NCBI GenBank assembly: GCA_016744485.1
Contig: JADGEG010000001.1
Location: 1 to 34,819, forward strand
Direction: 5' to 3'
Length of the DNA: 34,819 nucleotides
Source: Arcobacter sp.
Lineage (GTDB): Bacteria; Campylobacterota; Campylobacteria; Campylobacterales; Arcobacteraceae
In this document: positions 1 through 8,636 of the stretch, piece after piece
Numbering within the stretch: the first letter of the stretch is position 1
How the letters are laid out: each line of letters opens with the position of its first letter
Made by a program: the position numbers and the translations under genes
Notes under the pieces: model-generated
What the model was told of the DNA's origin: nothing
What the model saw: the letters and a program-made list of their open reading frames with translations, nothing else
Databases searched by the model: none

Positions 1-260
1 TGTATTTCTTCTTTATTAACTTGCTTAGTTAAATTTAGTTTTGCTTCTATAGGAATAAATAAAGAAGATATTTCCATCAATGGTTGTCTCCATTGATGGG
101 TGATATTCGTTATCATTTCTCCCATAGAAACTAATTTATTTTGCTTAAAAATTATTTTGTCTTTTTTTTTATTTTTTTCAATTTCTATATTAATTAGATT
201 CTCGAGAACTTTATTCTTTTCTTGTAATTGTGAAAAATTATTATTTAAATCTTTTTTCAT
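1..260 (-). CDS. Sensor histidine kinase, N-terminal fragment (gene continues past the left edge); no transmembrane or sensor domain before the H-box
   Basis: My own translation of the reverse complement from ATG at 260-258 gives MKKDLNNNFSQLQEKNKVLENLINIEIEKNKKKDKIIFKQNKLVSMGEMITNITHQWRQPLMEISSLFIPIEAKLNLTKQVNKEEI. The frame stays open to position 1. GEMIxNIxHQWRQPL is the phospho-acceptor H-box typical of Campylobacterota histidine kinases. The ORF is absent from the supplied track because it is truncated. It starts 14 nt downstream of the WG-repeat gene stop. Confidence 0.7.
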   Translation of the reverse strand, partial: MKKDLNNNFSQLQEKNKVLENLINIEIEKNKKKDKIIFKQNKLVSMGEMITNITHQWRQPLMEISSLFIPIEAKLNLTKQVNKEEI

Positions 261-274
261 AAGATATATATCAT

Positions 275-1036
275 TTAAAATTTTTCACCATTATTTAAAA
301 TTGGTTTTAAAATTTTTTTTCCTTTTGAGTTTATATATCCTACTTTCCCATTTTTGATAACTTTTGCATAAGAGTTAGAAAAATCATAAGCATAATCATA
401 AATTGGTTTAGCTATAACTTCACATTCATCACTAATATACCCCCATTTGTTTCCTAGTTTAGTTCTTGCATAAGAATTTACAAAGTTAAATATTTCATCA
501 TATTTTCCATTTATTTTTAAATTCATAGTCTTTGTTATGCAACCTAATTTACCGTTAACAGTTGAGCCTACAAAAGCAGCTTTCCCAATAAATTCACCAG
601 CACTCGAAAAAACTGGTTTTTGAACAAGTTTAAATTTATCATTTAAATATCCAAACTTACCATGAATTTGAACAATAAAAAAACCATTAAAAAGTTTAGA
701 CATACTATCGTATATAGGTTTTACTAACATTTTATTTTTATTATTAACAATTCCATATTTATTATTATACTTACTAATTGAATAATCATTTCCATAATAA
801 TTATGAATCCAATGTAAATTAAATAAATTAGGATGTTGTGTCTTTATATTTTTATTCTCAATATCATCAAATTTTGATAATTTATCATATATTGCTTTTA
901 CGCTTATATTGTTTTTATTAGACAATAAACCATATTTATTTTCTTCTTTTATAATAGTAACTCTTTCTTTATTAGAACAAGCACTAAAAAACAAAATAAC
1001 AAATATAGAACTTATAAATATTATATTTTTAAACAT
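275..1036 (-). CDS. WG-containing-repeat (KWG-type) lipoprotein
   Basis: Signal peptide with lipobox (ILFFSAC). About seven repeats of the pattern K(Y/F/W/L/V)G(Y/I/L/C)(I/L)N/D...KP(I/V)YD, e.g. NKYGLL, NKYGIV, GKFGYL, GKLGCI, NKWGYI, GKVGYI. Strong AAGGAG RBS upstream of the ATG, overlapping the stop of the preceding gene. Confidence 0.75.
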   Translation of the reverse strand: MFKNIIFISSIFVILFFSACSNKERVTIIKEENKYGLLSNKNNISVKAIYDKLSKFDDIENKNIKTQHPNLFNLHWIHNYYGNDYSISKYNNKYGIVNNKNKMLVKPIYDSMSKLFNGFFIVQIHGKFGYLNDKFKLVQKPVFSSAGEFIGKAAFVGSTVNGKLGCITKTMNLKINGKYDEIFNFVNSYARTKLGNKWGYISDECEVIAKPIYDYAYDFSNSYAKVIKNGKVGYINSKGKKILKPILNNGEKF

Positions 1037-1045
1037 TTCAACTCC

Positions 1046-2395
1046 TTATTTATTTGGATTTGCTTTTATTCTAAATTCAACTCTTCTTGAAAGTTCAACA
1101 TTCTCGCTACCATCTTCATTATATATTAAGTTTGATGATGATTTACCTTTAGCTATAAAAGTATCATTTAAAAATATTTGATTGTCTTTTATATATATAT
1201 TTTTTAGATTTACTAAGTATTTTAGTACAGCATTTGCTCTATTTTGTGATAATTTTTTATTTTTACTAAATTTTTCTTCTAAAGTTTTAGCTGTTCTATA
1301 TCTTGATGAAGTATGTCCTTCAATATATACATCAATAATTTCATTTTGATATTCTTTTATAATATTAATATATCTTGGAAAAAAATCTTTTAATATATTT
1401 TTATAGGCATTGTTTATTTTATTACTACCTCTTGAAAATATAAGATTAGGATTTTTAAATTTTAAAGTAAGTGTACTTTTATCTAAAACGGCATCCCATT
1501 TTTTAAAGTCATTCGCAAATTCATCATTTAAAGCTTTATATAAGTTAGCTATAATATGTATGCTAAACTTATCTTTCTTCATTTGAAGATTACCTTTTGT
1601 ATCTTTAGCTTTTGCAAAAGCAGTATAATTTCCATTGCTTAATTCATCTTTTATATTTACACACCATCTATTGGTATTTTTAAGTATTTTGGCTTCATAT
1701 ATATTTGGAATATTTTCAAAAGATAAATTTACATGTTTGACATTTTTTGATAAAATATCACCACAAATTTTTGGAGTATTGTCATTAATAATATTATAAT
1801 CATCTATGCTAATTAGTTTTATTTCTGGACGTTGTATTTTAACAATTTTAGGATTATTTATAACTTTTTTTACAATAATATTTGCCTTTGTACATAATTC
1901 TTTTAAATTTTTTGATCTTAACAGTTTTGCAATTTTTACGTCATTTGTTTTTGCTGCATAATGTAAAGGTGACATATCATATTTATCTACAACATTACGG
2001 TTTGCTCCATTACAAATTAATAGTTTAGACATTTTTGTATAAGCATTTCTTGTTGAGTCAATTAAAGGACTATCTTTATATTTATCTATACTATTAACTT
2101 GTGCACCACTTTTAATTAGAGTTTCTGCAATATCTAAATGATTAAATCTTGCAGCTAAATGTAAAGGTGTATATCCAAACCTATCCTTATGATTTAAATC
2201 ACCTTTTTCTTTGATAAAAAACTTAATTAATTTTAAATCATTAATTCTTACTGCATCATGAATTGATGTTTCTAACAATATGTCTTGATAACTAAGATTT
2301 GTTAATGCCTTTTTATCATTATTAGTATTTTGTTTTGTAGAACAACCTGTTATTATTATCATAATAACACCTAAGCTTAAAATATATTTATTCAT
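1046..2395 (-). CDS. Lipoprotein with ankyrin repeats, one bacterial Ig-like module and a C-terminal OmpA/MotB-like peptidoglycan-binding domain
   Basis: Lipobox IIITGC. Ankyrin consensus GYTPLHLAARFNHLDIAETLIKSGAQVN and MSPLHYAAKTNDVKIAKLL (about nt 1916-2278). Ig-like module NDNTPKICGD...NRWCVNI...LSNGNYTAFAKAKDTKGN (about nt 1550-1828). OmpA-like C-terminus YIEGHTSS...LSQNRANAVLKYL...LSRRVEFRI (about nt 1061-1483). AAGGA RBS. Confidence 0.8.
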   Translation of the reverse strand: MNKYILSLGVIMIIITGCSTKQNTNNDKKALTNLSYQDILLETSIHDAVRINDLKLIKFFIKEKGDLNHKDRFGYTPLHLAARFNHLDIAETLIKSGAQVNSIDKYKDSPLIDSTRNAYTKMSKLLICNGANRNVVDKYDMSPLHYAAKTNDVKIAKLLRSKNLKELCTKANIIVKKVINNPKIVKIQRPEIKLISIDDYNIINDNTPKICGDILSKNVKHVNLSFENIPNIYEAKILKNTNRWCVNIKDELSNGNYTAFAKAKDTKGNLQMKKDKFSIHIIANLYKALNDEFANDFKKWDAVLDKSTLTLKFKNPNLIFSRGSNKINNAYKNILKDFFPRYINIIKEYQNEIIDVYIEGHTSSRYRTAKTLEEKFSKNKKLSQNRANAVLKYLVNLKNIYIKDNQIFLNDTFIAKGKSSSNLIYNEDGSENVELSRRVEFRIKANPNK

Positions 2396-2418
2396 CGTTT
2401 TTCCTTTGCTTTAATACG

Positions 2419-7830: not shown

Positions 7831-7865
7831 ATTTTTCCTTTAACTTACTTTTTATATTGATTTTT

Positions 7866-7874
7866 TGTTATAAT
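7866..7874 (+). promoter_or_regulatory. Candidate extended -10 box (TGtTATAAT) for the response regulator gene
   Basis: tgttataat lies 37 nt upstream of ATG 7911. AAGG RBS at 7901-7904. Confidence 0.4.
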
Positions 7875-7885
7875 CTAAAAAAGCG

Positions 7886-7894
7886 ATTATAGCA
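7886..7894 (-). promoter_or_regulatory. Candidate extended -10 box (TGcTATAAT on the minus strand) for the T1SS operon
   Basis: Plus-strand attatagca equals minus-strand TGCTATAAT, about 55 nt upstream of the TolC start codon. Confidence 0.4.
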
Positions 7895-7910
7895 TAAAAA
7901 AAGGTAAAAG

Positions 7911-8636
7911 ATGATTAATTATACTATAAATAATAATCAAAATTACGAAAATATATTAAAACACTTAAACATATTGTATATAGAAGATGAGACAAACATA
8001 AGAAATAATATAAGCAAAACATTAGAAATGTTCGTAAGCAATGTTTTTTCTTTTGAAAATACTGAAAATGTCGACTTAATATTTAAGAATAAAAGAATTG
8101 ATATTATTATTACAGATATTAATTTACCATATAAAGACGGTATAACATTTGCACAAGAAATAAGAAAAATTGATTCAAATATACCAATTATTTTATTAAC
8201 TGCATATACAGATACAAAGTATTTACTTAAAGCTACAAAATTAAAATTAATAGATTATTTAACAAAACCTATTGATTTTAAAACACTGCAAAAAGCATTA
8301 CATAATTGTGTAAAAGACATAGTAGAAAATTCAAGATATATAATAGAATTTCCTAATAATATCTCCTACAATGTATTAAATAAAGAATTATTTGATACAA
8401 AAAATCAAAAAATAGTATCTTTAAGTACTAAAGAATTATCTTTATTAGAATACTTTATTAAACATCATAATAGAGTGATAAGTCATGAAGAGTTCAAAGA
8501 CAATATCTGGAGTGATAATATAGACTATGCTAGCGATGCTGCTTTAAAAAACATCTTAACGAAACTTAGAAAAAAAATTGGAAAAGATAGTATTAAAAAT
8601 ATTTCAGGAGTTGGTTTTAAAATACATACTATATAA
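7911..8636 (+). CDS. OmpR/PhoB-family response regulator (receiver plus winged-helix DNA-binding domain)
   Basis: Receiver residues are present: acidic pair in LYIEDE, phospho-acceptor in IIITDINLP, T in LLTAYTD, K in LTKPIDF. C-terminal Trans_reg_C pattern LSTKELSLLEYFIKHHNRVISHEEF...LRKKIG...ISGVGFKI. Confidence 0.9.
   Translation: MINYTINNNQNYENILKHLNILYIEDETNIRNNISKTLEMFVSNVFSFENTENVDLIFKNKRIDIIITDINLPYKDGITFAQEIRKIDSNIPIILLTAYTDTKYLLKATKLKLIDYLTKPIDFKTLQKALHNCVKDIVENSRYIIEFPNNISYNVLNKELFDTKNQKIVSLSTKELSLLEYFIKHHNRVISHEEFKDNIWSDNIDYASDAALKNILTKLRKKIGKDSIKNISGVGFKIHTI

Follow-up and report, generated by a model that had tools for sequence, protein, structure and literature searches.

Giant adhesins exported by type I secretion systems (T1SS) drive biofilm formation and attachment to hosts or particles in many bacteria. 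OmpA- or MotB-like accessory proteins accompany two described systems of this kind: in Shewanella, the adhesin BpfA, its T1SS and an OmpA-like gene are co-transcribed as the bpfA operon (PMC3672883), and Salmonella pathogenicity island 4 (SPI-4) encodes SiiA, a T1SS subunit that resembles MotB, binds peptidoglycan (PG) and is required for the adhesin to function (10.1101/641415). In the non-canonical Lap system Dvh of Desulfovibrio vulgaris, the adhesin and the T1SS core are kept and the regulatory proteins have diverged outside the gammaproteobacteria (PMC10990149). A pangenome preprint on Arcobacter butzleri reports that 12 of 49 strains have a putative T1SS, comprising TolC, HlyD-like and regulatory proteins together with an RTX-like agglutinin of 2517 aa, and does not dissect it (10.1101/775932). 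Here we analyse a stretch of 34,819 nucleotides from Arcobacter sp. (GenBank assembly GCA_016744485.1, contig JADGEG010000001.1; the window hereafter), which begins with a T1SS operon, and find that this locus is a variant of the Lap/Bpf-type adhesin T1SS with a predicted cell-wall-binding channel and lipoprotein and with a putative two-component pair of its own. An earlier note on this DNA, made from its letters, had mentioned PG-binding accessories of other adhesin T1SS and had not recognised the combination seen here as a described system. The latter impression is borne out: full-text literature searches returned no description of a TolC-SPOR or TolC-LysM fusion, nor of this accessory gene set, beyond the passing mention in A. 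butzleri. The accessible part of a Chemical Reviews article on T1SS contains nothing on accessory PG-binding proteins.

The locus consists of six minus-strand genes and a divergent regulator gene. All of them, with the gaps between them and an 80-nt control region, were recovered where the earlier note had placed them, and they comprise the following features.

7911..8636, plus strand: OmpR/PhoB-family response regulator, 241 aa (Pfam)
7831..7910, no strand: divergent control region, 80 nt (alignment of 12 Type A loci, defined below)
5998..7830, minus strand: LapE/TolC-family outer-membrane channel, 610 aa (Pfam OEP)
6365..6445, minus strand: 36-nt tandem repeat (2.2 copies) in the acidic linker of the channel (TRF)
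6001..6288, minus strand: SPOR domain of the channel, residues 515-610 (family profile, AlphaFold2 (AF2) model, Foldseek)
3815..5974, minus strand: LapB/LssB-type T1SS ABC exporter, 719 aa, TTG start (TIGR03375, Pfam)
2419..3825, minus strand: LapC/HlyD-family periplasmic adaptor, 468 aa (TIGR01843, Pfam HlyD_3)
1046..2395, minus strand: Ank/Ig/OmpA-like lipoprotein, 449 aa (Pfam, PADLOC, AF2, Foldseek)
1889-2293, minus strand: ankyrin repeats of this lipoprotein, residues 35-169 (Pfam, AF2)
1556-1813, minus strand: Ig-like Big_13 domain of this lipoprotein, residues 195-280 (Pfam, AF2)
1055-1549, minus strand: predicted ZorB/MotB-type PG-binding domain of this lipoprotein, residues 283-447 (PADLOC, Foldseek)
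275..1036, minus strand: WG-repeat lipoprotein, 253 aa (Pfam WG_beta_rep, lipobox)
1..260 and past position 1, minus strand: soluble histidine kinase, 5' part, 86 codons (translation)

The gaps within the operon are 23, -11, 23, 9 and 14 nt, the negative value being an 11-nt overlap of the HlyD adaptor gene with the ABC gene, and the start codons of the TolC gene and the regulator gene lie 80 nt apart in divergent orientation. The operon is predicted to be co-transcribed. Profile searches supported the domain calls of the earlier note, namely OEP, Peptidase_C39/ABC_membrane/ABC_tran, HlyD_3, Ank, OmpA and WG_beta_rep, and identified its Ig-like region as Big_13. Its description of the locus as an accessory island fared differently. 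The G+C content of the operon (22-29%) is the same as that of the remainder of the window (25% for the window overall, 22-29% across 1-kb segments), so the T1SS locus is not a compositional island, and a horizontally acquired island was rejected on that ground.

The export machinery itself is readily assigned. The ABC exporter matches the type_I_sec_LssB model TIGR03375 over its full length with 876.2 bits (cutoff 693.1), far above its scores against HlyB, PrtD or bacteriocin models, and contains the Pfam domains Peptidase_C39, ABC_membrane and ABC_tran. Its C39-like domain (CLD; residues 14-141, nt 5552-5935) best matches the Vibrio CLD 3B79 (E=7e-14). In an alignment to the peptidase 7N87, Thr21 and Cys95 of the exporter occupy the positions that we take to be those of the catalytic Cys and His, going by the D-C-G and H-F-V-V motifs of C39 peptidases, and the domain is predicted to be degenerate and non-catalytic. 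The adaptor scores 374.4 bits with the type_I_hlyD model TIGR01843 (cutoff 208.65) and has a single N-terminal transmembrane (TM) segment at residues 42-70. The channel matches Pfam OEP above the cutoff (112.9 bits) and the type_I_sec_TolC model TIGR01844 below it (186.5 bits, cutoff 225.15); its assignment as the T1SS TolC is supported by its position in the operon and by the name given to its homologues by JGI, 'adhesin transport system outer membrane protein'. Judged by these family matches, the ABC exporter, adaptor and channel would together form an LssB/LapB-type adhesin T1SS. In the sister assembly L001 (5044-7222), the ABC gene is called as two open reading frames (ORFs) of 107 and 625 aa, which points to a frameshift near codon 100; the 719-aa ORF is intact in the window (3815-5974) and in L002, and the L001 frameshift probably reflects an assembly or sequencing error, or strain variation.

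The substrate is predicted to be a Lap/Bpf-like giant adhesin, encoded downstream of the kinase directly past position 1. The source contig stops right after the kinase (L001), as would fit a break of the assembly within a repetitive gene, and the sister contig L002 runs into an ORF whose first 220 aa, the only part known from the organism of the window, are non-repetitive and end in '...LGASAAGGDGAGDG'. In L004, the closest complete relative (82-93% protein identity), the adhesin gene encodes 2271 aa with 11 Big_9/cadherin-like (tandem-95) repeats, two VWA domains and two DUF5801/T1SS-143 repeat domains (122 bits, cutoff 66); no NCBIfam C-terminal target-domain match was returned for this protein. 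The adhesin of M. canalis reaches 5871 aa, and giant ORFs directly follow the kinase gene in at least 15 loci; the gap between kinase and adhesin genes measures 104 nt. An N-terminal module of ~150 aa is conserved in 16 loci, and all 15 adhesins that were aligned contain an invariant di-alanine within 'L(E)xL(D)A(A/S)AAG', followed by a Gly-rich stretch. In Vibrio cholerae, LapG cuts CraA at AAAG and FrhA at PAAG, and replacement of AA by RR blocks cleavage (PMC6890996). The di-alanine of the aligned adhesins fits this motif and is a likely site of release by a protease. The label of retention module that we give to the N-terminal region rests on its position, its conservation and the di-alanine. 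The same module also occurs in a 2566-aa giant protein of locus L005 (7994-21305; E=1.6e-40).

The arrangement recurs well beyond the window. When loci from a reference-genome scan were searched by tblastn with all window proteins, the same gene order was found in ~20 independent loci, with protein identities as low as ~35%. Nearly all of these loci bear the label Arcobacteraceae or Campylobacterota. Such recurrence indicates that the arrangement is not due to chance. The conserved order is the response regulator (RR), then TolC-ABC-HlyD-Ank/PGBD-(WG)-HK, where PGBD denotes the PG-binding domain and the histidine kinase (HK) lies at the 3' end or beside the regulator. Accessory genes, kinase and regulator are syntenic with the T1SS across Arcobacteraceae, an outcome in favour of the earlier note, and the loci fall into the following classes.

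Type A: RR <- / -> TolC-ABC-HlyD-Ank/PGBD-WG-HK-adhesin (L004, L008-L017, L020)
Type A': as Type A without WG (L018, L019)
Type B: kinase next to the regulator, no adjacent adhesin (L024-L028; partial in L022, L030)
Type C: Ank-PGBD paralogue outside a T1SS (L005, L021, L023, L029, L031-L033)

Complete genomes with a Type A locus include those of M. canalis (CP085223.1), H. ebronensis (CP182347.1) and Halarcobacter (OY781089.1), as well as contig_1 of ENA ERZ25073213. The WG lipoprotein is syntenic in most loci and absent from L018 and L019. In Type B loci, ~636-aa genes following WG had been suspected of encoding LapD and turned out to be transketolase genes; redoxin, alanine racemase, SCO1 and PNPOx are other neighbours there.

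The first of the two candidate wall-binding elements is part of the channel, which is composed of an OEP barrel (approximately residues 1-435), an acidic low-complexity linker and a C-terminal SPOR domain. The tandem repeat in the linker encodes KEDVASNDLESQ twice (TRF score 148, 95% matches). Tails beyond the barrel span ~20 to 340 aa among the TolC homologues, with 140-199 aa in 108 of the 120 listed, and those inspected consist of an acidic linker followed by a ~90-aa domain. Taken alone, the window copy of this domain scores 14.7-16.6 bits, under the Pfam SPOR (PF05036) cutoff of 21. However, a profile built from 49 homologous domains, of which 39 match Pfam SPOR themselves, finds the SPOR domain of DamX among the PDB sequences (2LFV, E=1.9e-8, 85 residues). 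The AF2 model of the domain has a predicted local distance difference test (pLDDT) value of 96.4 and a b-a-b-b-a-b topology, and Foldseek ranks DamX SPOR first against it (prob 1.00, TM 0.66), with the SPOR domains of DedD, CwlC and RlpA also listed. The SPOR call of the earlier note is therefore confirmed at the level of family and structure, the score of the window copy itself staying below the Pfam threshold.

A phmmer search with the SPOR domain, covering 1.8 billion representatives, returned 124 proteins, and the three that carry names come from Campylobacterota or Arcobacteraceae metagenome-assembled genomes. These matches are up to 1351 aa long and contain one to five SPOR-matching stretches; among eight longer ones that were scanned, Pfam SPOR is present in seven and OEP in six. 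Related OEP proteins with more than one SPOR copy score 26-68 bits, above the Pfam cutoff, and two channel orthologues have LysM in the place of SPOR. Variable copy number and LysM replacement are what a generic wall-binding role predicts, and the exchange of SPOR for LysM argues strongly that wall binding is the selected function. The SPOR domain of the channel is accordingly a candidate PG-binding domain. One LysM channel belongs to an orthologous operon (L086, 10001-17791) that keeps the regulator, Ank, WG and kinase genes and encodes an Ank protein of 322 aa without OmpA domain; wall-binding function appears to shift here between the channel and the ankyrin protein. In L088 (8164-14464), a two-SPOR TolC is paired with an ABC exporter that is 41% identical, and the opposite strand encodes a GerE-type regulator and an HlyD-type adaptor fused to PAS domains, an unusual fusion.

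The second candidate wall-binding element is a lipoprotein. Both accessory lipoproteins of the operon have lipoboxes with Ser at position +2 (ITGC-S, and FSAC-S in the WG protein), and this residue makes an outer-membrane location probable for the Ank/Ig/PGBD lipoprotein. Pfam finds Ank_2 (114 bits), Big_13 (33 bits) and OmpA (44.8 bits) in the latter, and its AF2 model (pLDDT 80) shows a disordered tether next to the lipobox (residues 1-34) and a disordered linker between the ankyrin and Ig-like parts (residues 170-191). The OmpA-like domain proposed in the earlier note has its Pfam match; the assignment was corrected to a predicted ZorB/MotB-type PG-binding domain. PADLOC detects ZorB2 in it with 173.5 bits over model positions 61-226 of 238, the NCBIfam ZorB2 model scores 143 bits against a cutoff of 400, and the best Foldseek match is ZorB of the type II ZorAB from Sulfuricurvum kujiense (8VVI, 36-37% identity, rmsd 2.5-2.9 Å). 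The motif NxxLSxxRA is invariant in the domain, which would bind PG in vivo. The Ank-Ig-OmpA protein family comprises more than 200 clusters, and those with names belong to Arcobacteraceae. As for the WG-repeat lipoprotein, it matches Pfam WG_beta_rep with 102 bits, and NCBIfam scans returned no informative relatives.

Relatives of the PG-binding domain occur in several other settings. About 50 loci from many phyla (L034-L084) were retrieved through this domain only, and those sampled with PADLOC are genuine type II Zorya loci (ZorA2-ZorB2-ZorE2); the shared domain indicates that the wall-binding domain of the lipoprotein has common ancestry with an anti-phage stator subunit. In L005, an Ank-Ig-PGBD paralogue lies outside any T1SS, after a dCache kinase gene and before Fic/Mur-ligase-like, PGA_cap (poly-gamma-glutamate-type), aminotransferase and nucleotidyltransferase genes; further along this 21-kb locus comes the gene for the 2566-aa giant protein. 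In two other Arcobacteraceae loci (L049, 9929-15647; L054, 9929-15824), a different ABC/HlyD pair, ~35% identical to that of the window, is directly preceded by a gene for a protein of 571-630 aa whose N-terminal part is a ZorB2-like PG-binding domain; this is a second pairing of such a domain with a T1SS.

The third distinguishing element is the regulatory pair. The earlier note had placed a kinase beside the T1SS genes, and the full-length protein, 266 aa as read from the sister contig L002, indeed has an H-box HQWRQP (His55) and a HATPase_c domain (58.5 bits). It has neither a TM segment nor a sensor domain; its N-terminal stretch looks coiled-coil-like by eye, and its partial NCBIfam matches are to the kinase cores of AtoS, FixL and FlgS of C. 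jejuni. The regulator contains Response_reg (84 bits) and Trans_reg_C (53 bits) according to Pfam. Wherever a locus reaches far enough to show it, the regulator gene lies next to the TolC gene, and the kinase adjoins it in Type B loci. From this synteny in two gene arrangements we infer that the two proteins are paired, and kinase and OmpR-type regulator would form a two-component system. The control region contains an AAAGGA ribosome-binding site 7 nt before the TolC ATG and, on the minus strand at 7886-7894, an extended -10 box, TGCTATAAT. With the consensus TTTwwATGnTAnnAT, this box is invariant in 12 Type A loci at 10-15 nt from the regulator start codon. Promoter and terminator scans gave counts equal to the shuffled expectation at the AT content of the window, and the two minus-strand terminator-like sites both lie inside the ABC gene.

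Taken together, we consider it probable that the locus encodes an adhesin T1SS of Lap/Bpf-like type, that the SPOR domain of the channel and the ZorB-type domain of the lipoprotein tie its outer-membrane end to peptidoglycan, and that its own kinase-regulator pair controls its expression. The ABC exporter, HlyD adaptor and TolC-family channel would thread a repeat adhesin of several thousand residues out of the cell, and its N-terminal ~150-aa module would stay behind as a plug, lodging the adhesin in the channel at the cell surface. A periplasmic protease could release the adhesin at the invariant di-alanine that follows the module, so that release would be proteolytic. The channel would be anchored to the cell wall by its SPOR domain on the flexible acidic linker, and the lipoprotein, probably in the outer membrane, would combine its ZorB/MotB-type PG-binding domain with Ig-like and ankyrin modules for protein interaction. 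Channel and lipoprotein may then transmit to the sacculus the force that pulls on the retained adhesin, or may hold the machine in place at particular sites of the wall. Wall tethering as such is well supported by the predicted domain content, and a load-bearing role of the wall-binding domains may follow from it. The sensor-less cytoplasmic kinase and the divergent OmpR-type regulator would most likely control transcription from the conserved back-to-back promoter region.

Several observations weigh against this reading. The PG-binding domain of the lipoprotein has GHTSS, with Ser in place of the Asp of GHTD, which we take to be the canonical OmpA motif. A TolC protein of Malaciobacter is devoid of any wall-binding extension, which indicates that SPOR is dispensable in some lineages. 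The adhesin N-terminus found no match among NCBIfam models, PDB sequences (profile search, noise only) or plasmids (tblastn), and a homologue search with it returned nothing. A regular-expression scan of the L004 adhesin for GGxGxD detected no canonical RTX nonapeptides, and Type B loci are without an adjacent adhesin gene. No terminator-like site was detected in any operon gap, in a scan that is uninformative at 23% GC. Finally, neither LapG (BTLCP, Peptidase_C93) nor LapD (LapD_MoxY_N-GGDEF-EAL) is encoded in the window, nor was either found in the ~20 loci with the Ank/WG/kinase set up to 10 kb from the matched gene.

The last point bears on the strongest alternative, an ordinary Lap system in which LapG and LapD are encoded elsewhere, the lipoproteins are structural extras, the two-component pair acts on transcription only, and release proceeds as in Pseudomonas or Vibrio; we give it a little less than an even chance. 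The invariant di-alanine matches validated LapG sites (PMC6890996). A sister T1SS in L085, with ABC and HlyD proteins 64% and 55% identical to those of the window and an 887-aa TolC with three SPOR-like stretches, lies ~4 kb from genes for LapD (LapD_MoxY_N + GGDEF + EAL, 741 aa) and LapG (Peptidase_C93) located downstream of it (16269-18673, minus strand), so that LapD and LapG evidently do occur next to close relatives of this T1SS. In V. cholerae, LapG and LapD (VCA1081 region) are unlinked from frhA (VC1620) and craA (VCA0849). Locus tags of the LapG/LapD region, frhA and craA appear in PMC6890996. In L087 (10001-23342) and L089 (10001-22970), distant multi-SPOR TolC proteins of 989-1113 aa stand beside LapD-homologous GGDEF-EAL proteins and giant proteins, one of 9761 aa and another of more than 2593 aa that contains RTX repeats. 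The N-termini of these giant proteins are unlike the adhesin family of the window and contain no di-alanine in the first 300 aa; several ORFs of these neighbourhoods have no Pfam match.

What speaks against an ordinary Lap system is, besides the missing LapG and LapD homologues in the window and in the neighbourhoods of the ~20 loci, that the three SPOR-TolC loci with a LapD-type gene all lack Ank, WG, kinase and regulator. At the level of neighbourhoods, the pattern is thus either/or, with a LapD-type gene in three SPOR-TolC loci versus the two-component set in ~20. A LapG encoded elsewhere in the genome would be compatible with a wall-tethered adhesin T1SS, and as the leading rival account of the release step it comes close to an even chance.

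Less likely, at roughly one chance in four by our estimate, is that SPOR (or LysM) serves mainly as an address label rather than a load-bearing element, bringing channel and adhesin to septa or new poles for polar adhesion. SPOR domains recognise denuded glycan strands, which are enriched at division sites, and the channel domain matches those of the septal-ring proteins DamX, DedD and RlpA in fold and sequence. Its invariant Asn16 and Thr19 align with Gln351 and Ser354 of DamX, which we presume to be needed for septal localisation, but the position of DamX Trp385 is occupied by Ser or Ala. Moreover, the replacement of SPOR by LysM and its loss in some lineages fit generic wall binding better, and a second PG-binding protein in the same operon argues for bracing.

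More speculative still is an extension of the tethered-adhesin reading, which we think improbable as it stands: in this Arcobacteraceae lineage, the c-di-GMP inside-out switch of LapD and LapG would have been replaced by the two lipoproteins and the kinase/OmpR-type regulator. SPOR or LysM on the channel would direct the adhesin to specific sites of the wall, the periplasmic ankyrin repeats would bind or shield the adhesin plug or the protease, and the kinase would read the state of the secretion machine. A comparison for this proposed role is offered by FlgS, a soluble kinase of Campylobacter jejuni that reads the assembly of the flagellar export apparatus.

That the accessory genes are unrelated neighbours of a toxin, protease or bacteriocin exporter and the ZorB-like lipoprotein a remnant of Zorya is highly improbable and largely refuted by synteny: the PG-binding domain is most similar to ZorB2 and the exporter has a C39-family domain as bacteriocin exporters do, but the lipoprotein differs from true type II Zorya loci in having no ZorA or ZorE, TM or plug, which led us to reject a remnant, and a toxin or bacteriocin exporter was rejected on the LssB-family score far above HlyB and bacteriocin models, the degenerate CLD without the presumed catalytic Cys and His, and the conservation of the gene order with the giant adhesin across genera.

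The other 26 kb of the window are largely housekeeping, as the earlier note had stated, with genes for RimO, TilS, UvrB, a Pgp3-like M23 peptidase, YebC, TsaD, Dxr, CdsA, L13, a GlmM-like mutase, LeuC, ArgH and two release-factor family proteins, probably RF1 and RF2; one chemoreceptor and one AraC-type regulator are found besides. The M23 peptidase (13104-13967, minus strand) scores above the curated cutoff for Pgp3, a helical-shape peptidoglycan peptidase (315 versus 300 bits). A 141-aa ORF between L13 and a release-factor gene (25309-25734, minus strand) has no Pfam match at E<=1e-5, and a 142-aa ORF (20252-20680, minus strand) matches only the C-terminal end of a model for a fimbrial tip adhesin, weakly at 29 bits and far below the cutoff.

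Little is understood of how cells deal with force that acts on a protein stuck in an outer-membrane channel, and a channel with its own wall-binding domain would be a clean, testable case of a secretion machine coupled to the sacculus; channels that differ in SPOR copy number, have LysM instead of SPOR or lack the extension occur naturally and can be compared. Sister loci with LapD-like genes (one also with LapG), set against those with kinase, regulator and lipoproteins, provide a natural experiment on the control of adhesin display without a nearby c-di-GMP switch. Among the organisms of the family are members of the Arcobacter group that are of interest for food safety and the environment.

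Among the closest known systems are the Lap system of Pseudomonas fluorescens (LapA, LapEBC, LapG, LapD) and FrhA/CraA of V. cholerae. The locus shares with them the LssB-subfamily ABC exporter and its C39-like domain, the HlyD adaptor, the TolC-family channel, and a giant repeat adhesin that has VWA domains and, after a conserved N-terminal module, a di-alanine and a glycine-rich stretch. It differs from Lap in having no linked LapG or LapD, in the SPOR domain of its channel, and in the Ank-Ig-PGBD lipoprotein, the WG lipoprotein, the soluble kinase and the OmpR regulator that the operon adds; the N-terminal module of its adhesin type has no NCBIfam match, and the L004 adhesin no RTX nonapeptides. 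Dvh uses a BTLCP protease and a c-di-GMP-binding partner, neither of which is linked at the Arcobacter locus. The bpfA system of Shewanella, with an AggA-type T1SS and homologues of LapG and LapD, also combines an OmpA-like accessory gene with adhesin and T1SS, a likeness drawn by gene content. In Arcobacter, however, a lipoprotein joins the OmpA-like domain to ankyrin and Ig modules, a two-component pair takes the place of the c-di-GMP pair in the neighbourhood, and the TolC protein is itself predicted to bind the wall. SPI-4 (SiiE, SiiCDF, SiiAB) likewise joins a giant-adhesin T1SS to a MotB-like PG-binding accessory, but SiiA resides in the inner membrane and makes up, with SiiB, a MotAB-like complex that conducts protons, whereas the lipoprotein of the window has no TM or plug and the locus no MotA/ExbB/SiiB-like partner gene. 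With type II Zorya, only the homologous periplasmic PG-binding domain of ZorB (8VVI) is shared, here in a T1SS context without ZorA, ZorE, TM or plug. Lastly, the SPOR division proteins DamX, DedD, FtsN and RlpA have the same fold and detectable sequence homology, whereas in Arcobacter an outer-membrane efflux/secretion channel carries the SPOR domain as a C-terminal fusion.

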